A stretch of 42,624 bases of DNA from UHGV virus genome UHGV-0204464. One strand, 5' to 3'. Positions within the stretch are counted from its first letter, which is position 1. Every line of letters begins with the position of its first letter. Shown here piece by piece: positions 2,398-33,602 of the stretch. The translations under genes and the position numbers were made by a program. The DNA comes from a virus. The notes below the pieces were generated by a model. It was not told the origin of the DNA, did not search any database, and saw nothing but the letters and a program-made list of their open reading frames with translations.

Positions 2398-3849
2398 ATG
2401 GCTACGTGGCAACAGGGTATTAATTCTGGTGGTTTTCTGGCTGGCATCGGTACGCAAAATGAGAATGCGCCAAAGGCAAGCGACATTAACGCAACGCTTG
2501 GTCTGATTCGCGAAAACAATGAACTGGCTCGTTCAGGTGCAAATAACGTTGGTCTGACCGCGTTACGTGGTCTGGCTGGAGTTGCTGATATTTATAAGCA
2601 GCAGCAACAGCAGGAACGTAAAGCGGCATTCCAGAAAGGTTATGCGGATGCTTATGCGTCCGGCGACAGGGAGCAGATGCGTAATCTTATTACAGCATTC
2701 CCCGAAGAGTTTGAGGAAGTCCGTAAAGGCATGGGGTATGTCGATGACGCCCAGCGGAATGATTTTGGCAATCTGGCGCTCAAGGCTCAGGTAGCTTCGT
2801 CGCTTGGTCCGGGTGCATTTGGCAGGTTCATGATGGATAACGAAAAGGAGATGCGTCGTTTAGGTATCCCTCCAGAAACTATTGCGGAAATGCAGGTTAA
2901 TGACCCGCAGGGCTTCCAGCACTTCACAGGTAATCTGGCACTATTTTCTCTCGGTCATGAGAAGTATTTCGATATCAAAGATCAAATGGAAGGTCGGGAT
3001 ATTGAGCGTGGCAAGTTGGCAGAGACGATTCGCAGCAATAAAGCTGGGGAAGGTTTAAAGGCGCAAAGCATTGCTGTTAGCCGTGAAAACTCCCTGCGCA
3101 CTGCTGGAGGTGCTGTTCCTGCATCTGTTAAAGAATATCAATATTTCAACAGCCTGTCTCCAGAGCAACAAAAGACATATCTTCGTGTTCGAGGTCGTCC
3201 TGATGCTGGCGGGGAGAATGTTGTGCAACTGGCAGATGGCAGAACGGTAACGGTTGGTAGGAAGCTTCACGGCGCTGGTGCTAATGCGTTCTACGAAGGA
3301 ATAGACAACGAGGGCAATATGATTCGCGTCCCCGCAAGTTCTATTGCTGCTCCGGCTACATCGGCAGCTAATGCACAGAATTACGAAATGAAGAAAGATC
3401 TTGATGCAATTTCTGGCGCATCAATTGACGATCTTGGCTTCATGACAGGTATTACAGGTTCTTCAGGTTCTTTTGCTCTTGGTGCAGATATTCGTAGCAG
3501 GGCATCTGGTGTTGAGGAGAGGAGGCTATACAACGCTGCACAGCGAATCATGGGCAAAATGCAAAATCAGGGGATTGCAGCAGCCCGAGATATGGGGGCA
3601 TCTGGCATCAACACCGAAGCAGAGGCCAATAGGTATTTTCAGGGTATGCCAAAGCCTGATTTCTCAAGTCCTGAAGCGCTGCAACAATCAATGCGCGACA
3701 TTCAGCAATATACCGACAATTACAACCAGCAATATAACGTTAATGTTGGTAATGGCGGGAAGAAATCATCAAGGCAACAGTCAGCTACTCAGCAATCAGC
3801 AGGAGGTAGCTACACGTCAAAATCAGGCATTCAATTTACGGTGGAATGA
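2398..3849 (+). CDS. Ejection protein, P22 gp20-like
   Basis: 483-aa ORF in the gp20 position; RBS AAGGGG before the ATG. Confidence 0.55.
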
Positions 3850-5972
3850 TGAAAGTAACTGCAAACGGTAAGACATTTACCTTCCCTGATGGTACGAGCA
3901 CCGAAGATATTGGCACCGCCATTGATGAGTATTTTGCTGGTCAGGCTGTTCAGCAACAAACAGTTAATCAGGCCAATAATGCACCAACACAGGAAGAACC
4001 ATCATTGATGCAACAAGCTGGCGATTGGCTCACTGGTGGTCAAAGTGCAGGGCAAATTGCAGAACAGGCTGGTCGTGGTCTGGTAAACATACCATTTGAC
4101 GTATTACAGGGTGGCGCAAGTCTGATTAATGCAATCAGTCAGGGGCTTGGTGGGCCAAAAGTATTGGATGATGTCTATCGTCCAGTCGATCGACCGACAG
4201 ACCATTACGCGCAAGCCGGTGAAACAATTGGCGGGTATCTCCTGCCAATTGGTACAGCGGCAAAAGCTGCTGGAGCGCCAGCAAAGCTCGCTGGAGATAT
4301 CGGTTCCGCAGGAAACATGATTGCAGGCTCTCTTGCTGATGCTGCAAATCAGGAGGGCGATTTTGCACAAAATGCTGCCATTAACGGTGGTATCAATATT
4401 GGTGCTCAAGGCGTTATTTCAGGTGCCGGGCGCGTTATTGCGCCAAGGGTTTCACAGGCTCTTGGTGGTGCAGCACTGAATTCTGCTAATGATGTTTCCA
4501 GGATGGCAAAGTCAGATGCTGGGCGTCAGTCAATTGCCAGTCAGGCCGCTAATGTGTCCGAAGATGTAGCAAAAGCAGCTGAGTCTGCTGGAATTGATAT
4601 AAACGCATTAACACCAGGAATGCGATCTGGAAGTCGTGGAATTGCACAAGCCGAAGGCGCATTGGCATCAACACCTGGAATTGTTCAGGACGCCCATCAG
4701 GCAGCATTTAACGAAATATCATCAAAGTTAAGTCGAAACCTTGATGAATTTGGGGCCACATCTGGAACGGCATCAGAAAAAAGTGCGGCTATAAAACAAA
4801 GGATTCTTCAAAATCTTGATCAGATGAAGGATGCCGAGCGCGCGGCATGGGATGACGTGCGGTCAACAATGCCAAATCAAAAAGCAAGAATGCTAAATGG
4901 TAATGCCGTTATTCAGGCAGAGCGATCTGCTGGCATACCGCTTACTCCTGAAATGAAACAGTTTGTTCAGGCAAACAATCAAGGTGGAGTAACATTTGAT
5001 GGCATGAAAGCATGGAGAGCGAAATTTGCTGATGCGGAGCAAAAATATAAGCGTAGCGGAGAGGCAAATGCGGCAAGGAGAGCAGGGGAAATACGCCGGG
5101 CAATTACTGATGATATGCGCACAATGGCGGAAAACGGCGGATTTCTTGATGACTGGCAGAAAGCTAATGATCTGTCTAAAGCGAGGTTATCAGCACAAGA
5201 GAGTGCAGAGTCTGTTTTCGGGCGTGATTTGGCAACAGATGCACTGATTACGAATGGAGTAAAATCCCTTCAATCATCGTCAGCTAAAGGTCTTAATGGT
5301 CCTGCTGGATTCCATTCTATGATCCGCGCGCTGCCAGAATCAGAGCGTGTTCCTGCTATATCATCAATGTTGCAAGATGCTATCTCGCATGGTGTACGTG
5401 GTGGCAAAGCTGATGCAGCAGGAATTAACCATATCGCAGAGATACTGACTCCACAAAATGTAAAAGCCATTAGCCGATATTCCTCAGAGCTTGGAAGAAT
5501 TGCTGATGCATATGGCACTCTTGCAAGAGCAGCAGTGAAACCTCAGCAGTATATTGAAAGAACAGGTAGAACTGCCAATGTACTACGCGATCTGGATGCT
5601 GGTTTATCCAACGTCACATCAACAGTGTTAAATGCAATTGCCAATTCAACATCAGGTGCCATTGTTGGTGGCGCTGGAGGAGGCATTGCAGGCGCTGCCG
5701 CAGGTGCTTTAGTTGGCGCTGGGTTAAAAGGCGCTGTATCTAAAATTGCCACCACACGTAGTGGTCGGTATGCGATAGAGAAAGCAGTTCAGGAAGCAAC
5801 TAAAGCAGTAAGAGCAGGCGGAAGCAAAGAAGCATTAGCGGCGGCGGAACGCAGATTTATGGCAAATAAGGCCGCCGTAAAAGCAATACGCGAGGCACTA
5901 GGAAACGAAGAGTTCCAGCGTTTAGCAAGGGCTGGAATTGTGGCATCGCTAAGCGGAATGGCACAGGAGTAA
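3846..5972 (+). CDS. Ejection protein, P22 gp16-like (longer variant)
   Basis: 708-aa ORF overlapping the previous stop; Ala/Gly-rich with Gly-rich hydrophobic segments near the C-terminus; synteny. Confidence 0.55.
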
Positions 5973-6377
5973 TTAGTCATCCATGGATGGATTGAGCTTA
6001 TCTCGTGTTGATGTGGCAATTTTCCCAACATTTTTCAACCAAGATTTTAAGAAGGATATGTCGTCCTTAATATCATGAATATCCTCATTCTTTATACGAT
6101 CAACCTTATCCTCTAAGCTCTCTATAGAACGCTCAATGCTAGACAGAGAGATTTTTAAGTCCCCTTGCTCACGTTCCAGTGAGGATTTGAGAGCACAATA
6201 TTCGTTTTCTAGAATTCCTATTTTTTTTGTTAGAGAGTGCATTCGATACTCATACACCAAACCAGAAACGACTAATGCAGCCAACAGAAACCATTCAAGC
6301 ACACCAACCTCCTTAGTTTTGCGCAGGATACCAGATGATAATGTGTAGTTGGAGTAGCGCGGTTGTAATGCAAGCAT
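5973..6377 (-). CDS. Membrane-anchored coiled-coil protein; candidate superinfection-exclusion moron (sieA position)
   Basis: 134-aa ORF antisense to the late operon; one TM-like segment (LEWFLLAALVVSGLV) followed by a heptad-rich coiled coil; AT-rich; start codon uncertain. Confidence 0.45.
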   Translation of the reverse strand: MLALQPRYSNYTLSSGILRKTKEVGVLEWFLLAALVVSGLVYEYRMHSLTKKIGILENEYCALKSSLEREQGDLKISLSSIERSIESLEDKVDRIKNEDIHDIKDDISFLKSWLKNVGKIATSTRDKLNPSMDD

Positions 6378-6436
6378 TTTGTTTTGGTTTTATGCTTGCT
6401 TGTATGTGTGTACAGTGCATATAATGCAAGCATACA
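6364..6436 (+). promoter_or_regulatory. Candidate regulated promoter with three ATGCAAGCAT-type repeats
   Basis: Repeat copies at about 6367-6376, 6393-6401 (inverted) and 6424-6433; TATAAT at 6418-6423 with TTGCTTG about 17 bp upstream; directly upstream of the 6459 ATG. Confidence 0.35.
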
Positions 6437-6458
6437 TCACAACAAAGGTGCTTGCATT

Positions 6459-7451
6459 ATGACTGAAAAGAAAAGTGGCGAAGGGAAAGCTAAGGGCGGT
6501 ATCGCTCGCGCAAAGTCGCTGACTAAAGAGCAGCGTTCTGAAATAGCAAAGAAAGCAGCGGCTGCAAGATGGAAGGATAAACCATTAATTGCTACGCATA
6601 AGGGATCGTTCCAGCATGAATTCGGGATTGATGTTGAGTGCTATGTGTTAAATGATGATAACAAAACTGCCGTTATTAGCCAGAGAGGCATGGGAGAAGC
6701 GATTGGTCTTGGCGAAGGTGGCAGCAGGTTGCCAAAGTTTATTCAGGGGAAAACTATTTCTCAGTATATCGGGCATGAATTAAGGGCAAAACTTGAAAAT
6801 CCTCTTATTTTTCAATACAAACAGGCGGGCACGAACACTCCAGCTAATCCTGTAATACATGGCTACGATGTAACAATATTAATTGATTTATGTCGAGCAA
6901 TCTCTAATGCTAAAGCTGAAGGTAAGTTGCTTTCCAGTCAGGAAGGGATTGCTAAGCAAGCCAGAATCATTATTGATGCATCAGCCAAGGCGGGCATTCA
7001 GGGGCTTGTTTATGCTTTGGCAGGGTATGACAGAACAAAAGAAGAGGTAATTCAAGCATATAAGCGATATGTTGCTGAAGAGGCTCGTGAGTATGAAAGA
7101 GAGTTCACCCCTGAACTTTATGAGCATTGGTATCGTCTGTATGGTATAGACAAACCAGTTAGAGGGCGACCATGGGCGTTTAAATATCTTACGATAGATC
7201 ACATTTATTACCCATTAGCCAGAAGTGAAGGAAAGGTATTTAATTTAGCAAAAACGTCAAAAGAAGAAAAAGGCAGCAAGAACGATAAAATACACCAGTT
7301 TTTATCAGAGGTTGGAGTTAAGGCTCTTAGAACCCAAATAGGTAAGGTTACTGGTATTGCAATGGTTTCTGATACTCGAGAAGAGTATGAGAAATACATA
7401 GATGAAAAGGTTATTGGACAAAGAACCATAGACTTAAAAGATAAAGAATAA
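6459..7451 (+). CDS. Hypothetical protein with Lys/Arg-rich N-terminal DNA-binding-like segment
   Basis: Long ORF; most plausible ATG at 6459 (MTEKKSGEGKAKGGIARAKSLTKEQRSEIAKKAAAARW); the track ORF starts earlier at 6384. Confidence 0.6.
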   Translation: MTEKKSGEGKAKGGIARAKSLTKEQRSEIAKKAAAARWKDKPLIATHKGSFQHEFGIDVECYVLNDDNKTAVISQRGMGEAIGLGEGGSRLPKFIQGKTISQYIGHELRAKLENPLIFQYKQAGTNTPANPVIHGYDVTILIDLCRAISNAKAEGKLLSSQEGIAKQARIIIDASAKAGIQGLVYALAGYDRTKEEVIQAYKRYVAEEAREYEREFTPELYEHWYRLYGIDKPVRGRPWAFKYLTIDHIYYPLARSEGKVFNLAKTSKEEKGSKNDKIHQFLSEVGVKALRTQIGKVTGIAMVSDTREEYEKYIDEKVIGQRTIDLKDKE

Positions 7452-7452
7452 G

Positions 7453-7479
7453 AAAAACCCACCGTCAGGTGGGTTTTTT
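7453..7479. terminator. Bidirectional rho-independent terminator
   Basis: AAAAACCCACC-GTCA-GGTGGGTTTTTT: 7-bp GC-rich stem flanked by A-run and T-run; sits between convergent genes. Confidence 0.7.
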
Positions 7480-7504
7480 ATAAGGAGTAATCATGATTTA
7501 CCCA

Positions 7505-8041
7505 TCAAACAACCCACCAGTTTGCCTGATTGGATACCAGCCTTGCAGTTTTTATGGAATTAATTATGCCATGCTCAAGAGCCTTGTTAGCATCCAAAAT
7601 GGTCGAGTCTGCTATCAGGGATGCCCACCTAATATGGGTTCCGATGTCGATATTGAACGTCTCAACGAAGCGATCAAGATCGTTATCGAGGCATTTCCCG
7701 TACTCTCTCAATCTGGCATGGTCGGCGGCTGGGGAGGCAAAGCACCATAATAGAGGATGTAACAGGAATCTTGATAATGGGTTTGCGAAACGTTCTGAGC
7801 CAGCCAGGAAAACGATATTAGCTATGGATTCAACATTGCTTATGTTGTGAGTTCTAACGGTAACAGGGAGTGACTTAAGAAAGTTATACGCAGTAAAGCC
7901 AGCGGCTGTTTCCCCTCCCTGACTTGATATATGGATATTTAATTCAGTTGCGCCTTGAGATAATGCGGTGAGACAGTGGTTCTGAAGTTGCCCAACAGTG
8001 GCAGTGTTAACGGGGCATAAGAAATGAATTGTGTGCAGCAT
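7505..8041 (-). CDS. ClpP-like (S14 family) serine peptidase homologue, translationally coupled to mnt
   Basis: 178 aa; by-eye alignment to ClpP core (IHISSQGGETAAGF vs INSPGG.ITAG; candidate Ser in NVESIAN and His in LLHPL); ATG overlaps the mnt stop (TAATG). Confidence 0.5.
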   Translation of the reverse strand: MLHTIHFLCPVNTATVGQLQNHCLTALSQGATELNIHISSQGGETAAGFTAYNFLKSLPVTVRTHNISNVESIANIVFLAGSERFANPLSRFLLHPLLWCFASPAADHARLREYGKCLDNDLDRFVETFNIDIGTHIRWASLIADSTILDANKALEHGIINSIKTARLVSNQANWWVV

Positions 8042-8317: not shown

Positions 8318-8346
8318 TTGACATGATAGAAGCACTCTACTATATT
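8318..8346 (+). promoter_or_regulatory. Pant promoter with Arc operator
   Basis: TTGACA (8318-8323), 17-bp spacer, TATATT (8341-8346); the spacer holds ATGATAGAAGCACTCTACTAT (8323-8343), matching the P22 arc operator as I remember it. Confidence 0.75.
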
Positions 8347-8350
8347 CTCA

Positions 8351-8371
8351 ATAGGTCCACGGTGGACCTAT
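8351..8371. promoter_or_regulatory. Mnt operator (Omnt) palindrome
   Basis: Perfect palindrome ATAGGTCCACGGTGGACCTAT between mnt and arc. Confidence 0.75.
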
Positions 8372-8385
8372 ATTGTGAGGTAAAT

Positions 8386-8544
8386 ATGAAAGGAATGAGC
8401 AAAATGCCGCAGTTCAATTTGCGGTGGCCTAAAGAAGTATTGGATTTGGTGCGTAAGGTGGCGGAAGAGAACGGGCGATCTGTTAACTCTGAGATTTACA
8501 AGCGAGTGTTGGACAGCCTGAAGAGAGAGGGGATAACGGTATGA
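8386..8544 (+). CDS. arc: Arc repressor (ribbon-helix-helix)
   Basis: MKGMSKMPQFNLRWPKEVLDLVRKVAEENGRSVNSEIYKRVLDSLKREG matches P22 Arc; the track ORF (from 8323) begins inside the operator, so the internal ATG at 8386 is used. Confidence 0.85.
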   Translation: MKGMSKMPQFNLRWPKEVLDLVRKVAEENGRSVNSEIYKRVLDSLKREGITV

Positions 8545-8825: not shown

Positions 8826-9749
8826 ATGACGAGTGTAGCAATTGCAGAACATACAATCAACGTTCCATTCCACGGAACAAATCTCTTTTTGGTCAGCATT
8901 AACAATGAACCTTACGTTCCTATGAAACCCGTTGTAGAAGGCATGGGTATGGTTTGGGCTGCTCAATTTGTTAAATTAAAACAGAGATTTGTCAAAGGTA
9001 TTTCGGAAATCGAAATACCTTCTGCTGGCGGTAAACAGTTAATGATATGCCTTGCCTTTCGTAAGTTTGCGGCTTGGCTTTCAAGCATTCAGCCAAACAA
9101 AGTCCGCCCTGAAATCCGCGACAAGGTAATCCAGTATCAGGAAGAGTGTGACGATGTGCTCTACGAGTACTGGACTAAAGGCCATGTGGTTAATCCACGC
9201 AAAGCTAAAAAGGCGTTGCCGGGGAAAATCACTACTGAACAGCAGGAAGCCATTAAACAACTCGTCATGAGTCGCGGTCAGTCTCTGCCAAAAGAAAAAC
9301 AGGCTAAGGCGATGATCACCATGTGGTCGTCACTGAAATCCCATTTTGGATGTTCGTACAAAGAAATCAGTGAGGAGCAGTTTACAGAAGCACTGTCACT
9401 TGCAGCTCGAGTTCCACTTGAAGGTGAGTTCATTGGCAAACAAGAAGAGTTACCAGCGCCAAAACTGGATATTAACTTCCCGATTTCATGGTTTGCTGAA
9501 AATGCACCTTACGCCATTATCAGGCAGCAATGCGGTGATACTGTTGCTCTTGACCGCAGCGCACTCGTTGAATGCAGTCCGGCGTATAAACTAATCAATA
9601 TTCTGACAAAAGCGGGGTATGACGTTTCAGCAGTAAGAGCTGAACTAAAAGCACTTCGCCATTTAATGGCTGAGCAAAGCTGGGCACTTAAAGAGATAGC
9701 TTCATTCGCAGCGATACGTGATAGAGCGTGCCACTCAATTAAACTTTAA
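8826..9749 (+). CDS. ant: Antirepressor Ant
   Basis: 307 aa; N-terminal AntA/KilA-N-like segment; position after mnt/arc; AGGA RBS. Confidence 0.8.
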   Translation: MTSVAIAEHTINVPFHGTNLFLVSINNEPYVPMKPVVEGMGMVWAAQFVKLKQRFVKGISEIEIPSAGGKQLMICLAFRKFAAWLSSIQPNKVRPEIRDKVIQYQEECDDVLYEYWTKGHVVNPRKAKKALPGKITTEQQEAIKQLVMSRGQSLPKEKQAKAMITMWSSLKSHFGCSYKEISEEQFTEALSLAARVPLEGEFIGKQEELPAPKLDINFPISWFAENAPYAIIRQQCGDTVALDRSALVECSPAYKLINILTKAGYDVSAVRAELKALRHLMAEQSWALKEIASFAAIRDRACHSIKL

Positions 9750-9790
9750 CTACCTGCACGAAAAGTGTAGGTCAATAACCAACGCAACGA

Positions 9791-9813
9791 CCCAGCTTCG
9801 GCTGGGTTTTTTT
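9791..9813 (+). terminator. Rho-independent terminator after ant
   Basis: CCCAGC-TTCG-GCTGGG hairpin followed by TTTTTTT. Confidence 0.7.
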
Positions 9814-9871
9814 ATGCCCAAAATTCACCGTAGCCATGCTGCGGCGATTCCTTGTGTCTGGAGCAAATTAA

Positions 9872-12817
9872 ATGAGAGACATTACAGCCAATGTGATCGT
9901 ATCGATGCCTTCGCAACTCTTCACTATGGCGCGTTCTTTTAAAGCCGTAGCTAATGGCAAAATTTATATCGGTAAAATTGACACAGATCCTGTAAATCCA
10001 GAAAACCAGATTCAGGTCTATGTGGAGAATGAAGACGGTTCTCACGTTCCTGTTTCGCAACCAATAATCATTAACGCTGCTGGATATCCTGTATATAACG
10101 GACAGATTGCCAAATTCGTTACCGTGCAAGGCCATTCTATGGCTGTTTATGATGCGTATGGTGCGCAGCAGTTCTATTTTCCTAATGTGCTGAAGTATGA
10201 CCCTGATCAGTTACGGCAGCAATTAGAAGACCCAGATGGAGCGAATAAATACCCAAAACTTCAGATAGCAAGATGGAGAGACAGTTATGATGTAAGAGGT
10301 TGGGGGGCTATTGGTGATGGTGTTCATGATGATACATCAGCTCTATCAGAATTACTTTCTGTTGCAACAGGTGGTGAAAAGATAGATGGGCGAGGGCTTA
10401 CTTTTAAAGTATCAACTCTTCCAGATGTCAGTCGATTTAAAAATGCTCGTTTTTTATTTGAGAGAATACCGGGTCAGCCTCTTTTTTATGCTTCTGAAGA
10501 TTTTATCCAGGGAGAGTTATTTAAAATTACAGATACACCGTGGTACAACGCCTGGACGCAGGATAAAACGTTTGTATATGACAATGTCATCTATGCGCCT
10601 TTTATGGCTGGAGACCGCCATGGTGTAAATAACCTCCATGTTGCATGGGTTCGCTCAGGAGATGACGGGAAGACCTGGACAACGCCGGAATGGCTTACAG
10701 ATTTACATAAAAACTATCCCACAGTTAACTATCACTGCATGAGTATGGGGGTTGTCAGAAATCGCCTTTTTGCTGTAATTGAGACGCGGACCGTGAGAGG
10801 AAATAAACTGCAGGTTGCAGAGTTGTGGGATCGCCCAATGAGTCGCAGCCTTCGCGTTTATGGTGGTATAACGAAAGCAGCAAATCAGCAAGTCGCTTAT
10901 ATTCGCATTACTGATCACGGATTATTTGCTGGTGATTTTGTCAACTTCTCAAACTCTGGTGTTACAGATGTTACCGGGAATATGACGGTGACTACTGTTA
11001 TTGATAAAAATACCTTTACAGTTACGACGCAAAATACCCAGGATGTGGATCAGAATAACGAGGGTAGATACTGGAGTTTTGGTACATCATTTCACTCGTC
11101 ACCATGGAGAAAAACCAGTCTTGGAACTATTCCTTCTTTTGTTGACGGAAGCACTCCTGTTACTGAGATTCACAGTTTTGCGACGATTAGCGATAACAGT
11201 TTTGCTGTTGGCTACCATAATGGTGATATTGGTCCACGCGAGCTTGGGATACTCTATTTCTCTGATGCTTTCGGTTCTCCTGGTAGCTTTGTTCGCAGAC
11301 GCATACCTGCAGAATATGAGGCGAATGCATCTGAGCCATGTGTAAAATATTATGATGGCATTCTGTATCTGACGACCAGGGGGACATTAAGTACTCAACC
11401 CGGTAGTTCATTGCACAGAAGCTCTGATTTAGGTACATCATGGAATTCTCTTCGCTTCCCAAATAATGTTCATCACTCAAACCTTCCTTTTGCCAAAGTT
11501 GGCGATGAGCTGATTATTTTTGGCAGTGAGCGCACATTTGGTGAGTGGGAAGGAGGAGAACCTGATAACCGTTATGCAGGAAATTATCCAAGAACATTTA
11601 TGACCAGAGTTAACGTCAATGAGTGGAGTCTGGATAATGTAGAGTGGGTTAATGTTACTGATCAGATTTATCAGGGCGGAATAGTTAACTCTGCGGTTGG
11701 TGTTGGTTCAGTTTGTATCAAAGACAACTGGCTGTACTACATTTTCGGTGGGGAAGACTTTCTAAACCCATGGAGCATAGGGGATAACAACAGAAAATAT
11801 CCTTATGTTCACGATGGTCACCCGGCTGATTTGTATTGTTTCAGGGTGAAAATTAAACAGGAAGAATTTGTTTCAAGGGATTTTGTCTACGGAGCCACTC
11901 CTAACAGAACGCTTCCTACTTTTATGTCGACGTCAGGCGTGAGGACGGTTCCTGTACCCGTTGATTTCACAGATGATGTTGCCGTCCAGTCACTGACTGT
12001 CCATGCAGGTACATCAGGACAAGTTCGCGCGGAAGTCAAACTTGAGGGTAATTACGCCATTATTGCGAAGAAAGTACCGTCTGATGATGTTACCGCTCAG
12101 AGATTAATCGTTAGCGGCGGTGAAACAACGTCTTCAGCAGATGGTGCAATGATAACGTTGCATGGTTCCAGAAGCAGTACTCCACGTCGCGCGGTATATA
12201 ACGCACTCGAACATCTTTTTGAGAACGGAGATGTTAAACCTTATCTTGATAATGTAAATGCTCTTGGTGGTCCGGGAAACAGGTTCTCGACAGTTTATCT
12301 TGGCTCCAATCCTGTGGTTACCAGTGACGGAACATTAAAGACAGAGCCGGTCTCTCCTGACGAAACATTGCTGGATGCCTGGGGTGACGTCAGGTATATC
12401 GCTTATAAATGGCTGAACGCTGTCGCTATAAAGGGGGAAGAAGGGGCGAGGATACATCATGGTGTAATCGCGCAGCAACTTCGTGATGTTCTTATTTCTC
12501 ACGGACTCATGGAAGAAGAAAGCACAACATGCCGCTATGCGTTTCTTTGCTATGACGATTATCCCGCAGTATATGATGACGTCATTACTGGCCAAAGGGA
12601 AATGCCGCTGACTGATAATGACGGGAGCATCATTGTTGATGAGGATGATAATCCAGTGATGGTAATGGAAGACATCATTGAGCGCGTTGAAATAACGCCA
12701 GCAGGATCTAGATGGGGGGTCAGGCCTGATCTCTTATTCTATATCGAGGCGGCATGGCAGCGCAGAGAAATGGATAAGATAAAAGCTAGGTTAGACTTAA
12801 TAGAAGGGAAGCACTAA
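9872..12817 (+). CDS. Chimeric tailspike: P22-type head-binding N-terminus fused to sialidase/endosialidase-like domain with C-terminal autochaperone-like segment
   Basis: 981 aa; first ~115 aa ([45 protein letters not shown]) match the P22 gp9 N-terminus; Asp-box motifs SGDDGKTW and SSDLGTSW; C-terminal HHGVIAQQL region resembles endosialidase/T5 pb1-type intramolecular chaperone domains. Confidence 0.8.
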
Positions 12818-12962
12818 ATGTTTCGTTGGCGTCAAAAATATGAACTGCTCACATAAAGAAGTAAGTACATTGGCAAAAAACATTGACGTCAACGAAATTA
12901 AATATAAAACATCATGCAGACATATTACCAATATTAATATAAGGTAATAAAAATATAATTTA

Positions 12963-12990
12963 CAAAAAAGGCCCGTTGGAAGCGACGGGC
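12963..12990 (-). terminator. Candidate minus-strand rho-independent terminator
   Basis: GCCCGT..ACGGGC hairpin (12971-12990) with a T-run on the minus strand (plus AAAAAAG 12964-12970). Confidence 0.3.
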
Positions 12991-13244
12991 ATTAACCGCG
13001 GTAATGGATAAATTATTAATGTTTTTAGATTGTGAACGATATCATATTGTGCGGAAGTAGTGAAGTAACCATGTAAAATGATTGTTTCATAGCCTATGAG
13101 ACACACAAGGCTTTGTGCTCTTCGATAGTTGTTAAGGCGGATCACTCTACCTTCTCATCAATCCAGTCCGCCCCCACTGCATCATTTCTCTGCGCTTATC
13201 GAGATACTGAGCATGGTTGTAAATTCAACTAACCCAGTTCGTTG

Positions 13245-13290
13245 ACAAAAAATTAGCGCAAGAGGACAAAAAATCACCTTGCGCTAATGC
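13245..13290 (-). promoter_or_regulatory. sib/tI-like hairpin downstream of int
   Basis: TTGACAAAAAATTAGCGCAAG..CTTGCGCTAATGC long inverted repeat matching the lambda sib/tI region. Confidence 0.6.
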
Positions 13291-13530
13291 TCTGCCTCAG
13301 GTCACTAATACTATCTAAGTAGTTGATTCATAGTGACTGGATATGTTGTGTTTTGTAGTATTATGCAGTCTATTATTTAGACTAAATCCTTCATAACATA
13401 TTGATATTTACAGTGTTTTCTGTTTCTCGTTCAGCTTTTTTATACTAAGTTGGCATTATAAAAAAGCATTGCTTATCAATTTGTTGTAACGAACAGGTCA
13501 CTATCAGTCAAAATAAAATCATTATTTGAT
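13275..13530. other. attP (lambda type) with arm-type Int sites; core at 13434-13448
   Basis: Core GCTTTTTTATACTAA at 13434-13448; arm-type CAGGTCACTAT-like repeats in both arms; adjacent to int. Confidence 0.8.
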
Positions 13531-14592
13531 TTCAATTTTGTCCCACTCCCTGCCTCTGTCATCACGATACTGTGATGCCATGGTGTCCGACTTATGCCCG
13601 AGAAGATGTTGAGCAAACTTATCGCTTATCTGCTTCTCATAGAGTCTTGCAGACAAACTGCGCAACTCGTGAAAGGTAGGCGGATCCCCTTCGAAGGAAA
13701 GACCTGATGCTTTTCGTGCGCGCATAAAATACCTTGATACTGTGCCGGATGAAAGCGGTTCACGACGAGTAGATGCAATTATGGTTTCTCCGCCAAGAAT
13801 CTCTTTGCATTTATCAAGTGTTTCCTTCATTGATATCCCGAGAGCATCAACATGCAATGTTGTAGGGATGGCAATTTTTACGCCTGTTTTGCTTTGCTCG
13901 ACATAAAGATATCCATCTACGATATCAGACCACTTCATTTCGCATAAATCCCCAACTCGCTGCCCGGTAACAACAGCCAGTTCCATTGCAAGTCTGAGCC
14001 AACATGGTGATGATTCTGCTGCTTGATAAATTTTCAGGTATTCGTCAGCCGTAAGTCTTGATCTCCTTACCTCTGATTTTGCTGCGCGAGTGGCAGCGAC
14101 CGGGTTTGTTGTTATATGGCCTTCAGCTATTGCCTCTCGGAATGCATCGCTCAGTGTTGATCTGATTAACTTGGCTGACGCCGCCTTGCCCTCGTCTATG
14201 TATCCATTGAGCATTGCTGCAATTTCTTTTGTGGTGATGTCTTCAAGTGGAGCATCAGGCAGGCCCCTCCTTATTGCTTTAATTTTGCTCATGTAATTTA
14301 TGAGTGTCTTCTGCTTGATTCCTCTGCTGGCGAGGATTTTTTCGTAGCGATCAAGCCATGAATGTAACGTAACAGAATTATCACTGTTGATTCTCGCTGT
14401 CAGAGGCTTGTGTTTGTGTCCTGAAAATAACTCAATGTTGGCCTGTATAGCTTCAGTGATTGCTATCCTCCTGTCTCGGCCTAATCCAAACTCTTTACCC
14501 GTCCTTGGGTCCCTGTAGCAGTAATATCCATTGTTTCTTATATAAAGGTTAGGGGGTAAATCCCGGCGCTCATGACTTCGCCTTCTTCCCAT
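13522..14592 (-). CDS. int: Integrase (tyrosine recombinase), essentially lambda Int
   Basis: 356 aa; MGRRRSHERRDLPPNLYIRNNGYYCYRDPRTGKEFGLGRDRR... matches lambda Int along its length. Confidence 0.95.
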   Translation of the reverse strand: MGRRRSHERRDLPPNLYIRNNGYYCYRDPRTGKEFGLGRDRRIAITEAIQANIELFSGHKHKPLTARINSDNSVTLHSWLDRYEKILASRGIKQKTLINYMSKIKAIRRGLPDAPLEDITTKEIAAMLNGYIDEGKAASAKLIRSTLSDAFREAIAEGHITTNPVAATRAAKSEVRRSRLTADEYLKIYQAAESSPCWLRLAMELAVVTGQRVGDLCEMKWSDIVDGYLYVEQSKTGVKIAIPTTLHVDALGISMKETLDKCKEILGGETIIASTRREPLSSGTVSRYFMRARKASGLSFEGDPPTFHELRSLSARLYEKQISDKFAQHLLGHKSDTMASQYRDDRGREWDKIEIK

Positions 14593-14788
14593 TTCTGATC
14601 CTCTTCAAAAGGCTACCTGTTACTGGTCGATTTAAGTCAACCTTTACCGCTGATTCGTGGAACAGATACTCTCTTCCATCCTTAACCGGAGGAGGGAATA
14701 TCCTGCATTCGCGCACCCATCGACGAACTGTTTCAAGGCTTCTTGGGCGTCGCTGGCGTGCGTTCCACTCCTGAAGTGTCAAGTACAT
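14570..14788 (-). CDS. xis: Excisionase Xis
   Basis: MYLTLQEWNARQRRPRSLETVRRWVRECRIFPPPVKDGREYLF... (72 aa) matches lambda Xis; overlaps int start; track ORF extends upstream. Confidence 0.9.
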   Translation of the reverse strand: MYLTLQEWNARQRRPRSLETVRRWVRECRIFPPPVKDGREYLFHESAVKVDLNRPVTGSLLKRIRNGKKAKS

Positions 14789-14904
14789 CGCAAAGTCTCC
14801 GCAATTACACGCAAGAAAAGCCGCATTGATGCGGCAATGGTAGGTCTGGATATCATTGAGCAATGAACAGGCCTCATCGAGTGTGAGGCGGTGTTATTTC
14901 ATGG

Positions 14905-24977: not shown

Positions 24978-25088
24978 GTCCTTATTATTACGCTCTGTAC
25001 TGGAACCATCCATGCACAATGTGTATTTTTACTTGTATTCGCAAAGTACATATTGTATTTTTTTATTCGTGTTTACTATGGAGGGCAT
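24978..25088. promoter_or_regulatory. OR/PR/PRM region between cI and cro
   Basis: Divergent intergenic region with AGTACATATTGTAT and TACTT..AAGTA partial palindromes related to the OL palindrome; TTGTAT-17-TATTTT promoter candidate; GGAGG RBS before cro. Confidence 0.4.
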
Positions 25089-25304
25089 ATGAGCAACCTA
25101 CGAAAATATCGAGAGTCACTGAATATCTCTCAAACAACACTTGCTAAGGCAGTTGGATGCACACAGGGAGCTATCGGACATTGGGAATCTGGTCGTCGCT
25201 TCCCAGACCTTAAAACATGCCGTGCTCTTGTTGCGTGCCTAAACAAGTTAGGCGCAAAAGTCAGTCTTGATGACGTGTTCCCGCCGGAACACAAAGCCGC
25301 TTAA
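25089..25304 (+). CDS. cro: Cro-like HTH regulator
   Basis: 71 aa from internal ATG with GGAGGG RBS; HTH QTTLAKAVGCTQGAIGHWESG; the track ORF has an implausible upstream extension. Confidence 0.7.
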   Translation: MSNLRKYRESLNISQTTLAKAVGCTQGAIGHWESGRRFPDLKTCRALVACLNKLGAKVSLDDVFPPEHKAA

Positions 25305-25315
25305 TAAGCGGATCC

Positions 25316-25360
25316 GCTCTTTGTAACAACGGACATTCGTCCTACGTCGCTGAAAAGCGA
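25316..25360 (+). promoter_or_regulatory. nutR (boxA CGCTCTTTG plus boxB hairpin)
   Basis: boxA-like CGCTCTTTG at 25316-25324; boxB TCGC-TGAAAA-GCGA at 25347-25360; preceded by AGCGGATCCGCT palindrome. Confidence 0.5.
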
Positions 25361-25445
25361 GTTCCAAGATATCTGACCAACTAAGGCCATATGCGTTTCC
25401 ACGCATACCTTTCAACTAACTATTCACTATTGGAAATCTTAAGAA

Positions 25446-25742
25446 ATGGAAAGAACAAGTTACAGCAAACTATCACAGCGTGACGTTGATCGCGCAGAAA
25501 CAGATTTACTTATCAATCTGTCAGCTATTACCCAGCGCGGTCTGGCAAAGATGATTGGCTGTCATGAATCGAAGATAAGCAGAACGGACTGGAGATTTAT
25601 TGCTTCGGTCTTGTGTGCTTTCGGAATGGCATCAGACATCAGTCCGATTAGCAGGGCTTTTAAGTATGCGCTTGATGGACTCACCAATAAAAAACGCCCG
25701 GCGGCAACCGAGCGTTCTGAACAAATCCAGATGGAATTCTGA
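25446..25742 (+). CDS. cII: CII transcriptional activator
   Basis: 98 aa; C-terminus LTNKKRPAATERSEQIQMEF matches lambda CII; N-terminal half divergent. Confidence 0.85.
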   Translation: MERTSYSKLSQRDVDRAETDLLINLSAITQRGLAKMIGCHESKISRTDWRFIASVLCAFGMASDISPISRAFKYALDGLTNKKRPAATERSEQIQMEF

Positions 25743-25774
25743 GGTCATTACTGGATCAATCCACAGGAGTCATT

Positions 25775-26674
25775 ATGACAAATACAGCAAAAATACTCAA
25801 CTTCTGCAGAGGTAACTTTGCCAAACAGGAGCGTAATGTGGCAGATCTCGATGATGGTTACGCCAGACTATCAAATATGCTGCTTGAGGCTTATTCAGGC
25901 GCAGATCTGACCAAGCGACAGTTTAAAGTGCTGCTTGCCATTCTGCGTAAAACCTATGGATGGAATAAACCAATGGACAGAATCACCGATTCTCAACTTA
26001 GCGAGATTACAAAGTTACCCGTCAAACGGTGCAATGAAGCCAAGTTAGAACTCGTCAGAATGAATATTATCAAGCAGCAAGGCGGCATGTTTGGACCAAA
26101 TAAAAACATCTCAGAATGGTGTATCCCTCAAAACGAGGGAAAATCCCCTAAAACGAGGGATAAAACATCCCTCAAATTGGGGGATTGCTATCCCTCAAAA
26201 CAGGGGGACACAAAAGACACTATTACAAAAGAAAAAAGAAAAGATTATTCGTCAGAGAATTCTGGCGAATCCTCTGACCAGCCAGAAAACGACCTTTCTG
26301 TGGTGAAACCGGATGCTGCAATTCAGAGCGGCAGCAAGTGGGGGACAGCAGAAGACCTGACCGCCGCAGAATGGATGTTTGACATGGTGAAGACCATCGC
26401 GCCATCAGCCAGAAAACCGAATTTTGCAGGGTGGGCTAACGATATCCGCCTGATGCGTGAACGTGACGGACGTAACCATCGCGACATGTGTGTACTGTTC
26501 CGCTGGGCATGCCAGGACAACTTCTGGTCCGGTAACGTGCTGAGCCCGGCCAAACTCCGCGACAAGTGGACCCAGCTCGAAATCAACCGTAACAAGCAAC
26601 AGGCAGGTGTGACAGCCTGCAAACCAAAACTCGACCTGACAAACACTGACTGGATTTACGGGGTGGATTTATGA
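25775..26674 (+). CDS. O: Replication initiator O
   Basis: 299 aa matching lambda O along its length; ori iterons inside the gene. Confidence 0.95.
   Translation: MTNTAKILNFCRGNFAKQERNVADLDDGYARLSNMLLEAYSGADLTKRQFKVLLAILRKTYGWNKPMDRITDSQLSEITKLPVKRCNEAKLELVRMNIIKQQGGMFGPNKNISEWCIPQNEGKSPKTRDKTSLKLGDCYPSKQGDTKDTITKEKRKDYSSENSGESSDQPENDLSVVKPDAAIQSGSKWGTAEDLTAAEWMFDMVKTIAPSARKPNFAGWANDIRLMRERDGRNHRDMCVLFRWACQDNFWSGNVLSPAKLRDKWTQLEINRNKQQAGVTACKPKLDLTNTDWIYGVDL
26123..26208 (+). repeat. ori-lambda iterons (four TCCCTCAAAACGAGGGA-type repeats) followed by AT-rich tract
   Basis: Direct repeats ATCCCTCAAAACGAGGGA / ATCCCCTAAAACGAGGGA / ATCCCTCAAATTGGGGGA / ATCCCTCAAAACAGGGGGA within O. Confidence 0.85.
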
Positions 26675-27372
26675 AAAACATCGCCGCACAGATGGTTAAT
26701 TTTGACCGTGAGCAGATGCGTCGGATCGCCAACAACATGCCGGAACAGTACGACGAAAAGCCGCAGGTACAGCAGGTAGCGCAGATCATCAACGGTGTGT
26801 TCAGCCAGTTACTGGCAACTTTCCCGGCGAGTCTGGCTAACCGTGACCAGAACGAACTGAACGAAATCCGCCGCCAGTGGGTTCTGGCTTTCCGGGAAAA
26901 CGGGATCACCACAATGGAACAGGTTAACGCAGGAATGCGCGTAGCCCGTCGGCAGAATCGACCATTTCTGCCATCACCCGGGCAGTTTGTTGCATGGTGC
27001 CGGGAAGAAGCATCCGTTATCGCCGGACTGCCAAACGTCAGCGAGCTGGTTGATATGGTTTACGAGTATTGCCGGAAGCGAGGCCTGTATCCGGATGCAG
27101 AGTCTTATCCGTGGAAATCGAACGCGCACTACTGGCTGGTTACCAACCTGTACCAGAACATGCGGGCCAATGCGCTGACTGACGCGGAATTACGACGCAA
27201 GGCTGCCGATGAACTGACCTGTATGACAGCGCGAATTAACCGTGGTGAGACGATACCTGAACCAGTAAAACAACTTCCTGTCATGGGCGGCAGACCTCTA
27301 AATCGTGTTCAGGCGCTGGCGAAGATCGCAGAAATTAAAGCTAAGTTAGGACTGAAAGGAGCAAGTGTATGA
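26671..27372 (+). CDS. P: Replication protein P (DnaB helicase loader)
   Basis: 233 aa matching lambda P; overlaps O stop. Confidence 0.95.
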   Translation: MKNIAAQMVNFDREQMRRIANNMPEQYDEKPQVQQVAQIINGVFSQLLATFPASLANRDQNELNEIRRQWVLAFRENGITTMEQVNAGMRVARRQNRPFLPSPGQFVAWCREEASVIAGLPNVSELVDMVYEYCRKRGLYPDAESYPWKSNAHYWLVTNLYQNMRANALTDAELRRKAADELTCMTARINRGETIPEPVKQLPVMGGRPLNRVQALAKIAEIKAKLGLKGASV

Positions 27373-27659
27373 CGGGCAAAGAGGCAATTATTCATTACCT
27401 GGGGACGCATAATAGCTTCTGTGCGCCGGACGTTGCCGCGCTAACAGGCGCAACAGTAACCAGCATAAATCAGGCCGCGGCTAAAATGGCACGGGCAGGT
27501 CTTCTGGTTATCGAAGGTAAGGTCTGGCGAACGGTGTATTACCGGTTTGCTACCAAGGAAGAACGGGAAGGAAAGATGAGCACGAACCTGATTTTTAAGG
27601 AGTGTCGCCAGAGTGCCACGATGAAACGGATATTGGCGGTATATGGAGTTAAAAGATGA
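27369..27659 (+). CDS. ren: Ren
   Basis: 96 aa matching lambda Ren (MTGKEAIIHYLGTHNSFCAPDVAALTG...). Confidence 0.9.
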   Translation: MTGKEAIIHYLGTHNSFCAPDVAALTGATVTSINQAAAKMARAGLLVIEGKVWRTVYYRFATKEEREGKMSTNLIFKECRQSATMKRILAVYGVKR

Positions 27660-27732
27660 CCATCTACATCACTGAGCTAATAACAGGCCTGCAGGTAATC
27701 GCAGGCCTTTTTATTTGGGGGAGAGGGAAGTC

Positions 27733-28173
27733 ATGAAAAAACTAACCTTTGAAATTCGATCTCCGGCACATCAGCAAAACGCTATTCACGCAGTACAGCA
27801 AATCCTTCCAGACCCAACCAAACCAATCGTAGTAACCATTCAGGAACGCAACCGCAGCTTAGACCAAAACAGGAAGCTATGGGCCTGCTTAGGTGACGTC
27901 TCTCGTCAGGTTGAATGGCATGGTCGCTGGCTGGATGCAGAAAGCTGGAAGTGTGTGTTTACCGCAGCATTAAAGCAGCAGGATGTTGTTCCTAACCTTG
28001 CCGGGAATGGCTTTGTGGTAATAGGCCAGTCAACCAGCAGGATGCGTGTAAGCGAATTTGCGGAGCTATTAGAGCTTATACAGGCATTCGGTACAGAGCG
28101 TGGCGTTAAGTGGTCAGACGAAGCGCGACTGGCTCTCGAATGGAAAGCGCGATGGGGAGATCGGGCTGCATGA
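27733..28173 (+). CDS. ninB: NinB (Orf) recombination mediator
   Basis: MKKLTFEIRSPAHQQNAIHAVQQILPDPTKPIVVTIQERNRSLDQNRKLWA... matches lambda NinB; start at internal ATG. Confidence 0.9.
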   Translation: MKKLTFEIRSPAHQQNAIHAVQQILPDPTKPIVVTIQERNRSLDQNRKLWACLGDVSRQVEWHGRWLDAESWKCVFTAALKQQDVVPNLAGNGFVVIGQSTSRMRVSEFAELLELIQAFGTERGVKWSDEARLALEWKARWGDRAA

Positions 28174-28697
28174 CTATCAAATCAAATACGCCAGCACACG
28201 ACAAGGACTGCTGGCAAACGCCGCTTTGGCTTTTTGATGCACTGGATATTGAGTTTGGATTCTGGCTGGATTCGGCAGCGAGCGACAAAAATGCTCTGTG
28301 CGCTCACTGGCTAACTGAGGACGACGACGCGCTCAATTCTGAGTGGGTAAGCCACGGTGCAATCTGGAATAACCCACCGTACAGCAATATCAGGCCGTGG
28401 GTGGAAAAAGCCGCTGAGCAGTGTATACAACAGCGACAGACGGTAGTGATGCTTGTGCCAGAGGATATGTCTGTCGGATGGTTCAGCAAGGCTCTGGAGA
28501 GTGTTGACGAAGTTCGCATCATCACTGATGGACGGATTAATTTTATCGAACCATCGACGGGGCTGGAGAAGAAGGGAAACAGCAAAGGTTCCATACTGCT
28601 GATTTGGCGACCGTTCATCAGTCCCCGGCGAATGTTTACTACCGTATCCAAAGCGGCATTGATGGCGATCGGGCAGGGCGTCAGGAGGGCGGAATGA
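28170..28697 (+). CDS. DNA N6-adenine methyltransferase (phage Dam-like, orphan)
   Basis: 175 aa from ATG overlapping ninB stop; NPPY motif (WNNPPYS); no adjacent restriction endonuclease gene. Confidence 0.7.
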
Positions 28698-28876
28698 GGC
28701 GACAGCAACGAAGTATCACCGACATAATCTGCGAAAACTGCAAATACCTTCCAACGAAACGCTCCAGAAATAAACGCAAGCCAATCCCAAAAGAATCTGA
28801 CGTAAAAACCTTCAACTACACGGCTCACCTGTGGGATATCCGGTGGCTTAGAGAACGCGCGAGGAAAACAAGGTGA
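28694..28876 (+). CDS. ninE: NinE
   Basis: [60 protein letters not shown] matches lambda NinE. Confidence 0.85.
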
Positions 28877-29043
28877 TTGACCAAAATCGAAGTTACGAAC
28901 AAGAAAGCGTCGAGCGGGCTTTAACGTGCGCTAACTGCGGTCAGAAGCTGCATGTGCTGGAAGTTCACGTGTGTGAGCACTGCTGCGCAGAGCTGATGAG
29001 CGATCCGAATAGCTCAATGTACGAGGAAGAAGACGATGAGTGA
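28873..29043 (+). CDS. ninF: NinF-like small Cys-rich protein (GTG start)
   Basis: GTG-initiated ORF (M)[47 protein letters not shown]...; overlaps ninE stop; not in the supplied track. Confidence 0.6.
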
Positions 29044-29248
29044 TTACCTGAAATGGTATCTCTGCCACCGCTGGCTAATTAAGTTTGCTGTAAAAGACTG
29101 GATGACAGCGGATGCCAACAAACTTAAGCAAAGAAAGGACTATTACTACGCCAGAATGAAGGAAAACTACTGCTCAATTCGCACTCGCATATTTATTAAA
29201 AAAGACCTTCAGTCAATTCTTCAATTGCGAGGGAAGGTAAATGGCTAA
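29036..29248 (+). CDS. Hypothetical nin-region protein
   Basis: 70-aa ORF with ATGA overlap to upstream gene. Confidence 0.45.
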   Translation: MSDYLKWYLCHRWLIKFAVKDWMTADANKLKQRKDYYYARMKENYCSIRTRIFIKKDLQSILQLRGKVNG

Positions 29249-29531
29249 CCTACGCAAAGAAGCGCGCGGCAGAGAATGCCAGGTACGTATTTACGGCGTA
29301 TGCAATGGAAATCCTGAAACTACAGTTCTGGCACATTACCGGATGGCTGGAATTTGTGGAACGGGGATGAAGCCTGACGACCTGATCGGTGCATGGGCTT
29401 GTAGTGACTGCCACGCGGAGATCGACCGACGCACAAGGATTCTCGACAACAAAGACGCCAGACTTTACCACCTCGAAGGCGTGATCAGGACGCAGGCGAT
29501 ACTGCTGAAGGAGGGGAAGATTAAGTCATGA
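29241..29531 (+). CDS. YbcO-like (DUF1364-type) Cys-rich protein
   Basis: 96 aa; ARGRECQVRIYGVCNGNPETTVLAHYR and CSDCHAEIDRR motifs resemble E. coli DLP12 YbcO from memory. Confidence 0.55.
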   Translation: MANLRKEARGRECQVRIYGVCNGNPETTVLAHYRMAGICGTGMKPDDLIGAWACSDCHAEIDRRTRILDNKDARLYHLEGVIRTQAILLKEGKIKS

Positions 29532-29890
29532 ACGAATATCAGTTTGTGCTTCCATACCCGCCGTCGGTGAACACCTACTGGCGAAGACGGGGAAGCCAAT
29601 ACTACATCAGCGATAAAGGAGAGAAATACCGAAAAGACGTTCAGCAAATCATCCGCCAACTCAAGTTAGACATTTTCACTAAATCACGACTCCGCATCAA
29701 AGTCATCGCAGACGTTCCAGACTCCCGCCGCCGCGACCTCGACAACATCCTGAAAGGTTTACTCGACTCCCTTATCCACGCCGGATTTGCGGAAGACGAC
29801 GAGCAATTCGATGACATTCGCGTAATTCGTGGCGTGAAAGTACCAGGCGGAAGGCTTGGAATAAAAATCACCGAACTGGAGAGCGTATGA
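29528..29890 (+). CDS. rusA: Holliday junction resolvase RusA
   Basis: 120 aa; LPYPPSVN..., DSRRRDLDNILKGLLD, GGRLGIKITEL motifs match RusA. Confidence 0.85.
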   Translation: MNEYQFVLPYPPSVNTYWRRRGSQYYISDKGEKYRKDVQQIIRQLKLDIFTKSRLRIKVIADVPDSRRRDLDNILKGLLDSLIHAGFAEDDEQFDDIRVIRGVKVPGGRLGIKITELESV

Positions 29891-30030
29891 ACAAAGCATT
29901 CGAACGATATATGCGCCAGCGTTATGGCAATCGCTACGATCTGACCCGCGATACTGGCGGTTTCTACTGCCGTGAGGTTGTGAAACGAATGTTTGAAGTG
30001 TGGTGTCATTGCAAAGGATGGGAGATCTGA
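29887..30030 (+). CDS. Hypothetical small protein (47 aa)
   Basis: ATG overlaps rusA stop; stop adjoins candidate Q start; not in the supplied track. Confidence 0.3.
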   Translation: MNKAFERYMRQRYGNRYDLTRDTGGFYCREVVKRMFEVWCHCKGWEI

Positions 30031-30644
30031 TGCGGTTAACTCCAGTATTCAGCATGGTTAACTTCATTAATGACGCGCACTTTCGCCGCGTATGGAGACA
30101 CCCGAAGAAAACCATCAACTCTAGCCAGAAAGCATGGGTTCATTACATGTTACAGGTATGGGGCAAGGTTAATGCCGGAGATTGCTCTCCAGGTGGTGCA
30201 ATTAACGTTATCGGTCGTCTGATGATTCGCAGTCAGTGGAGCGATGACAAGGCTAAGCAGATAGAGTCTGTCGTCATGCGCCTGTACGAAGAAGATGGGC
30301 TGCGCGGAGATGTGCTATACAAGAAAGCTCGCGAACTGGTCATTCCTCAATCATCGTTTAGCCACATCATCACTCTCGCCAAAGAATCAGATGATGCGGC
30401 TTTCGTTGAACGTGTGATGGTCAAGACTTTTCACCGTGAAAGCCCCGTCCGCGATGTAGCTATTAAGCGATATTGCAATCGCAATTGCACGCAAGATATA
30501 GCCAGGATGATTTCTTATATAACAGGTGCTGATATTCAATATTGTCGTAAGCGAGTGGTGTGGTGTGAGAAAGTGCTGGAGTCAGAAATGTTTTATGCAA
30601 TGAAACGAGAATTGGAGAAAGAATTTCCATTGATAGCGGCCTGA
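30030..30644 (+). CDS. Putative late-gene antiterminator (Q position)
   Basis: ORF between rusA and the PR'/tR'/lysis region; start ambiguous (30000 or 30030); no zinc-finger motif like lambda Q recognised. Confidence 0.5.
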   Translation: MRLTPVFSMVNFINDAHFRRVWRHPKKTINSSQKAWVHYMLQVWGKVNAGDCSPGGAINVIGRLMIRSQWSDDKAKQIESVVMRLYEEDGLRGDVLYKKARELVIPQSSFSHIITLAKESDDAAFVERVMVKTFHRESPVRDVAIKRYCNRNCTQDIARMISYITGADIQYCRKRVVWCEKVLESEMFYAMKRELEKEFPLIAA

Positions 30645-30737
30645 ACTGAAATAATTTTGTAAATGCGTTGCTTCCGAGAAATGAAAGTGGTATTTTTCGT
30701 ATATGCTCGGAGCAAAAGCGAACTGAGCAGCGAAATT

Positions 30738-30790
30738 GAAATCCTGATTTCCCCGGTTGCCGATAATATTTAGGGTCGACATACTGGCTA
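30738..30790 (+). promoter_or_regulatory. Candidate late promoter PR'
   Basis: TTGAAA-18-GATAAT or TTGCCG-17-CATACT, 15-60 bp upstream of the tR' hairpin. Confidence 0.3.
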
Positions 30791-30802
30791 GATTAGGTAA
30801 GA

Positions 30803-30835
30803 GCCTCGGCATAAACGTCGGGGCTTTTTTGTTTG
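30803..30835 (+). terminator. tR'-like rho-independent terminator
   Basis: GCCTCGGC-ATAAAC-GTCGGGGC hairpin followed by TTTTTTGTTTG. Confidence 0.55.
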
Positions 30836-31119
30836 CACAACAGGTAAGTGCATTTGTAGAGTTCGACTCTCTACCGTGGGCTTTTTCCCGCGATGCGAGC
30901 CATAAGTGCTCTTTCCGTTGTGCTGAATTAAGCGAATGCCGGAAGCAGAACCGGATCACCAAATGCGTACAGGCGTCATCGCCGCCCAGCAACAGCACAA
31001 CCCAAACTGAGCCGTAGCCACTGGCTATCCTGAACTCATCAGTGATAGTTACGCTGCGGCCTTCTTTCCCCCTTCCCAATATAAGAACTACGCAATCCGT
31101 TACTGGCGGAGGCGTTGCT

Positions 31120-32266: not shown

Positions 32267-32301
32267 TCGGGCGATGAAAACCAAAAAAACAGGAGCAATA
32301 T

Positions 32302-33358: not shown

Positions 33359-33359
33359 T

Positions 33360-33539: not shown

Positions 33540-33602
33540 AATGACAATTAAGTGAGATGAATATGGCAGCACTCAACATGCTGCCTTTTATCGTTGATTA
33601 GT

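Follow-up and report, generated by a model that had tools for sequence, protein, structure and literature searches.

The characterised protein most similar to the tailspike described here is SiaK1 of Enterobacteria phage CUS-3 (CP000711, ABQ88383.1; host E. coli RS218), which is annotated as an 'endosialidase tailspike protein' with endo-alpha-sialidase activity (GO:0016996), under the evidence code IDA (PMID 16689790; Stummeyer et al. 2006). CUS-3 is counted among the best-studied K1 endosialidases in a review in which its tailspike also serves as the example of module exchange, with an N-terminal domain like those of P22, HK620 and Sf6 and a catalytic domain like that of K1F. Thus, a K1 endosialidase tailspike with a swapped module is already known, both as a characterised protein and as a published example (PMC5380687).

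A second point of reference is endoNF, the endosialidase of coliphage K1F (PDB 1v0e, 3gvl and 3ju4; chaperone 3gw6). Deep mutational scanning of the K1F tailspike identified H350, R549, E581, R596 and R647 as key catalytic residues that do not tolerate substitution; Q330, K585 and N699 are also reported there as highly conserved and important for function, and D331, H527 and S528 as contributing to the network of interactions that surrounds E581 (PMC12632334). The Ser911-Lys916 dyad, together with R897 in the stalk, is essential for autocleavage (PMC8326128). The catalytic body and C-terminal chaperone of endoNF are common to the tailspike described here, whereas its N-terminus is a T7 tail-fibre-type adaptor, in the place of which the present protein has a P22 head-binding domain (PMC5380687).

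The DNA analysed (hereafter 'the window') comprises all 42,624 nucleotides of the viral genome UHGV-0204464. It contains a single, uninterrupted tailspike gene (Table 1) that is 99.3% identical to siaK1 at the nucleotide level over its full length, and the two encoded proteins agree in length (981 aa) and in the order of their domains. The upstream boundary sequence and the first 92 bp downstream of the gene are likewise common to the window and CUS-3. We consider it close to certain that the product of this gene is a variant CUS-3 endosialidase that serves a P22-like temperate podovirus as its tailspike, with activity, self-cleavage and host range predicted by homology.

Table 1. Features of the tailspike gene and its surroundings (nucleotide positions are those of the window; residues are those of the tailspike).
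Feature	Residues (aa)	Position (nt)	Strand	Remarks
Arc-domain repressor ORF, immI region		8323-8544		upstream of tailspike
Antirepressor Ant gene (P22_AR_N), immI region		8826-9749		directly upstream of tailspike
Boundary sequence bsq1 of CUS-3 record		9775-9871	+	start of 99.2% identity block with CUS-3
Terminator-like hairpin		9789-9808		in bsq1
Tailspike gene, allele of CUS-3 siaK1	1-981	9872-12817	+	single ORF from ATG, 981 aa plus stop
P22-type head-binding (virion attachment) domain	1-113	9872-10210	+	Pfam Head_binding PF09008, E=2.3e-66
Linker and swap joint	114-145	10211-10306	+	Gally and ZX5 homologies overlap
Endosialidase N-terminal extension	146-212	10307-10507	+	Pfam End_N_terminal PF12218, E=7.7e-37
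Catalytic six-bladed beta-propeller	213-662	10508-11857	+	Pfam End_beta_propel PF12217, E=4.1e-232
Beta-barrel inserted within propeller	324-406	10841-11089	+	Pfam End_beta_barrel PF12195, E=1.6e-45
Asp-box 1, SGDDGKTW	262-269	10655-10678	+	aligns with endoNF SGDDGQTW
Asp-box 2, SSDLGTSW	517-524	11420-11443	+	aligns with endoNF SRDIGQTW
Stalk (triple beta-helix)	663-817	11858-12322	+	Pfam End_tail_spike PF12219, E=3.9e-78
C-terminal intramolecular chaperone / autoprotease domain	818-981	12323-12814	+	Pfam Peptidase_S74 PF13884 and PDB 3gw6
Predicted cleavage dyad, Ser	S818	12323-12325	+	endoNF Ser911
Predicted cleavage dyad, Lys	K823	12338-12340	+	endoNF Lys916
HHGVIAQQL	862-870	12455-12481	+	in chaperone domain
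Functional residue	Q230			endoNF Q330, conserved
Functional residue	D231			endoNF D331, conserved
Functional residue	H250			endoNF H350, conserved
Functional residue	H434			endoNF H527, conserved
Functional residue	S435			endoNF S528, conserved
Functional residue	R456			endoNF R549, conserved
Functional residue	E488			endoNF E581, conserved
Functional residue	K492			endoNF K585, conserved
Functional residue	R503			endoNF R596, conserved
Functional residue	R554			endoNF R647, conserved
Functional residue	N606			endoNF N699, conserved
Functional residue (stalk)	R804			endoNF R897, conserved
Substitutions relative to CUS-3 (12)	R2, P43, P121, A207, K280, R309, D366, T555, T807, M967-D968-K969			window residues
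attP core GCTTTTTTATACTAA		13434-13448		downstream of CUS-3-like part
Lambda-type integrase		13522-14592	-	Arm-DNA-bind_1 and Phage_integrase domains
Excisionase (lambda-type Xis)		14570-14863	-	

An initial annotation, made by reading the sequence, had assigned the first ~115 residues of the protein to a head-binding domain of the P22 gp9 type. The profile match to PF09008, which covers the full length of that domain, agrees closely with this assignment, and the extent of the P22-like similarity can now be refined: it reaches approximately residue 127 against gp9 structures and residue 159 against the tailspike of phage Gally. In the PDB search, the N-terminal domains of P22-type tailspikes (1lkt, 2vnl and 8tvr, and also 7sg7, a 623-aa 'Gene 14 protein' chain) were aligned to residues 1 to ~127 with E-values between 4e-64 and 9e-45, and the P22 tailspike chains showed no similarity past that point. 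P22 gp9 and related P22-like tailspikes therefore share with the window protein a homologous N-terminal domain (PF09008).

Beyond the linker, the protein takes on a different identity. Residues 145-817 match endoNF (PDB 1v0e, 3gvl and others) with an E-value of 0, and when the two chains are aligned as a pair, 65.9% of the 665 aligned residues are identical, with a single 7-residue insertion in the present protein (FVDGSTP, aa 423-429). Because this similarity is to crystal structures, the endosialidase fold can be regarded as settled by homology, and the identification of the catalytic body as a sialidase-type endosialidase is supported. The initial annotation had proposed a profile search and had named a missing sialidase fold as an outcome that would count against it; both endosialidase and Peptidase_S74 domains were found in Pfam, and the fold is present as judged by the match to endoNF. 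All of the Pfam domains in the tailspike lie far above their gathering cut-offs, with E-values well past chance. Both Asp-boxes that had been read as marks of a sialidase-type propeller are where they were reported, inside a region of very strong endosialidase matches, and they are the only two occurrences of the pattern S-x-D-x-G-x-x-W in the whole protein. In addition to the Ser-Lys cleavage dyad, 12 functional residues of endoNF were mapped onto the window tailspike by alignment, and all 12 are conserved. One position in the stalk differs: Q853 of endoNF, which we take to be a polysialic-acid-binding residue, is replaced by Met760, and CUS-3 has the same residue there. The tailspike family presumably corresponds to GH58 of the CAZy classification, the phage endosialidases (endo-N-acetylneuraminidases).

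The C-terminal portion can be described in similar terms. The structure of the endoNF stalk plus chaperone (3gw6) aligns to residues 698-979 with an E-value of 1.8e-93, and Peptidase_S74 matches residues 818-878 (E=2.8e-10), a stretch that includes the segment HHGVIAQQL, which had previously been read as resembling the endosialidase chaperone; homology to both models, with Ser818 and Lys823 aligned, supports that reading. Residue T910 of endoNF aligns with T817 of the window tailspike, and S818 and K823 (in the context SDGTLK) therefore occupy the positions of the Ser911-Lys916 dyad. The predicted mature protein would thus consist of residues 1-817, with a C-terminal fragment of 164 aa being released.

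The joint between the two halves of the protein is defined by a pair of phages from different genera, each of which shares only one of them. The tailspike of phage Gally (Lederbergvirus), in which Head_binding is the sole Pfam domain, is 91% identical to the window protein over residues 1-159 and shows no similarity after that point. Conversely, Escherichia phage vB_EcoP_ZX5 (Uetakevirus, MW722083), which belongs to another genus than the window phage, encodes a tail fibre of 1039 aa (QTH80017.1) in which an N-terminal region of ~190 aa is unrelated and the extreme C-terminus differs; this fibre is 96% identical to the window protein over residues 134-980, which cover the endosialidase and S74 domains, and its endosialidase module is 99.5% identical at the nucleotide level over nt 522-2914 of the gene. 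The two homologies overlap at residues 134-159, and this overlap marks the swap joint. The earlier suggestion of a horizontally exchanged receptor-binding module thereby gains visible boundaries, on one side against Gally (aa 1-159) and on the other against the endosialidase part of ZX5. The near-identical ZX5 tract begins inside the endosialidase N-terminal extension and not at a domain border, which makes recent homologous recombination, from one endosialidase gene to another, a more likely source of the shared sequence than a clean shuffling of domains. At residues 967-969, the window protein reads MDK, as does ZX5, whereas CUS-3 reads IER.

The surroundings of the gene are those expected of a P22-like genome, in which the tailspike lies downstream of the immI (arc/ant) region; the layout of the window is complete in this respect, and morphogenesis genes elsewhere in it are matched in other phage records. 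The ant gene is only 84% identical to its CUS-3 counterpart, although it adjoins a block of 99.2% identity. Downstream of the tailspike, an 842-bp block of CUS-3 that carries neuO and its poly-psi repeats (positions 9039-9880 of the CUS-3 sequence) is absent from the window; the CUS-3 alignments that flank the missing block overlap by 11 bp (12899-12909), and the AAGACTC tandem of the neuO contingency locus was found nowhere in the window. Downstream of the gene, similarity to CUS-3 ends at 13224. CUS-3 has its own integrase, in place of which the window has a lambda-type attP/int/xis module, and the sequence GCTTTTTTATACTAA at 13434-13448 is what we take to be the lambda attP core. A related arrangement is seen in the prophage of E. 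coli 10035776-3, where an equally neuO-less tailspike end abuts ybhB-bioA, presumably the lambda attB region, and where homology to the window ends at ~13452. The entire window was scanned for tRNA genes that might mark an attachment site, and none was found; a promoter scan of 9600-13550 returned 9 sites against 9.7 expected.

Identity of the window with phage CUS-3 itself was considered and rejected, given that the neuO block, the CUS-3 integrase and the CUS-3 attachment site are all absent. Neither part of the window (1-25000 or 25001-42624) is covered to 80% or more by any phage record, and the genome is accordingly a mosaic. The window is thus a mosaic P22-like phage in its excised form, which has the CUS-3 tailspike without the CUS-3 cargo gene or integration module.

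Within the tailspike gene itself, the window and CUS-3 differ at 22 nucleotides and 12 amino acids, none of which falls on a mapped functional residue. From the overall identity to a gene annotated by direct assay, we infer that the window allele encodes an active enzyme. A replacement of alanine by threonine at residue 555 adjoins the catalytic Arg554 and is private to the window among the five sequences compared (window, CUS-3, ZX5, the 10035776-3 prophage and endoNF); K280 and the MDK residues at 967-969 are likewise private to the window when CUS-3 and the 10035776-3 prophage are the sequences compared.

Of 5,426 complete E. coli genomes, 181 carry the catalytic module (10400-12300) with an identity of at least 99%, and it is chromosomal in every case. 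Its carriers include O7:K1 CE10 and O1:K1:H7 APEC E18006 (as given in their titles) and APEC IMT5155; IMT_5155 is among the CUS-3 records labelled as serovar K1, and many of the records of CUS-3 siaK1 come from K1-labelled strains, the K1 link of the carriers being drawn from strain labels alone. The initial annotation had named a K1-type E. coli host. These carriers, and the near-identity to siaK1 of a phage from E. coli RS218, support that proposal, and the host range of the allele is probably K1 E. coli.

Two other accounts of the protein deserve mention. The first would make its main receptor a different or modified sialic-acid polymer, such as O-acetylated K1, the alternating alpha-2,8/2,9 polymer of K92 or the polysialic acid of another organism. 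The phage lacks neuO, so that its ecology as regards capsule O-acetylation differs from that of CUS-3, and O-acetylation is known to alter susceptibility to K1 phages (PMC13001214); but the protein departs from the CUS-3 endosialidase at 12 residues in all, with none at the mapped active-site positions, and genes of identical class occur as prophages in K1-labelled strains, which together make this account very improbable. Still less credible is a tailspike that binds polysialic acid with impaired catalysis, as a binding-only adhesin or a decaying prophage gene: the private A555T next to R554 and the further private changes at K280 and 967-969 could be read in that way, but the ORF is intact, every mapped catalytic and substrate-channel residue is kept, the 22 nucleotide differences from a functional gene are few, and a complete P22-like gene set with an intact attP is no degraded remnant.

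The preferred reading, that of an active K1 endosialidase tailspike, suggests the following course of infection. The trimer would attach to the tail by its N-terminal, P22-type head-binding domain, and the GH58-type body would bind and cleave the alpha-2,8-polysialic acid of the E. coli K1 capsule, a digestion that would allow the virion to tunnel to the outer membrane. The C-terminal 164 residues would serve the folding of the trimer as an intramolecular chaperone, after which self-cleavage at Ser818/Lys823 would remove them and leave residues 1-817. The receptor-binding body has been swapped onto a P22-type anchor, and its exchange between phage lineages may still be ongoing.

That last possibility can be put more broadly, as a K1 endosialidase cassette that is at present passing, both entire and in part, between temperate podoviruses of K1 E. 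coli that are unrelated to one another, and we would place the chances of this being correct at about even. Several observations argue for it: the block from 9775 to 12909 is 99% CUS-3-like, with flanking genes that are 84% identical or unrelated; the ZX5 module is 99.5% identical, with breakpoints near nt 522 and 2914 of the gene; the window allele has an MDK patch of the ZX5 type; and the window phage, though related to CUS-3, has no neuO and an attachment site of the lambda type.

What is mildly new in this locus is the combination of a lambda-type attachment site with the lack of neuO, the private A555T substitution and the fact that a Uetakevirus has very recently come to share the module. 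The tailspike assigns the window phage reliably to K1-encapsulated E. coli, and the neuO-less variant with the lambda-type attachment may be of use in tracking the diversity of K1 prophages or in choosing endosialidase reagents. If mobility of the cassette were to prove general, then K1 tropism and neuO-mediated modification of the capsule would be uncoupled far more often than the shorthand 'neuO = CUS-3' implies.

On either side of the tailspike gene, the window departs from the E. coli phage CUS-3 in several respects (the features concerned are collected in the table). The accessory region on the immI side (5973-8041) is unlike that of CUS-3, and the CUS-3 integration module is replaced by a lambda-type module (13225-14863), within which the sequence GCTTTTTTATACTAA at 13434-13448 is presumably the attP core, also of the lambda type. 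Since nothing interrupts this attP, the window represents the phage in its excised or virion form. A related prophage that lacks neuO, found in E. coli 10035776-3, adjoins ybhB-bioA.

Coordinates of features in and around the tailspike gene
Feature	Window position	Strand	Remarks
134-aa ORF	5973-6377	-	no Pfam match
P63C-domain ORF	6384-7451	+	TTG start
ClpP-like protease ORF	7505-8041	-	
Terminator-like hairpin, GACCCAGC-TTCG-GCTGGGTT, with T-run	9789-9808		between ant and tailspike gene
Module common to vB_EcoP_ZX5	10393-12785		gene nt 522-2914; ZX5 sequence 3240-5632
61-aa ORF	12960-13145	-	no Pfam match
Strong terminator-like hairpin, GCCCGTCGCTTCCAACGGGC, with T-run	12971-12990	-	spacer between tailspike and int
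Int	13522-14592	-	lambda-type module
Xis	14570-14863	-	lambda-type module

A separate arrangement was observed in E. coli ExPEC XM (NZ_CP025328, 839691-851532), where the tailspike is followed by an acyltransferase fragment, probably neuO, and then by lambda-type int and xis. Host DNA is absent between these elements, which suggests that the prophages at this locus are tandem or nested.

Immediately downstream of the tailspike gene, where window 12818-13224 was compared with CUS-3, the two flanking alignments have 11 bp in common (12899-12909), and a repeat search of the whole window found no AAGACTC tandem. In the spacer that leads to int, the minus-strand hairpin overlaps the 3' end of the 61-aa ORF. 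Upstream, the mosaic boundary between the window and CUS-3 (9775-9871) coincides exactly with an annotated ‘bsq1 boundary sequence’, and ant, which lies ahead of that boundary, is just 84% identical to its CUS-3 counterpart.

Within the tailspike itself, residue 555 (window 11534-11536), directly after the catalytic Arg554, is changed from alanine to threonine, a substitution that sequence comparison found in none of CUS-3, ZX5, the 10035776-3 prophage or endoNF (the endosialidase of coliphage K1F). The endosialidase and chaperone module is 99.5% identical at the nucleotide level to that of the Uetakevirus vB_EcoP_ZX5, and the N-terminus that precedes it in ZX5 is unrelated to that of the window tailspike. 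Such identity behind an unrelated N-terminus implies that two phage genera have exchanged this module very recently, with breakpoints within the gene.
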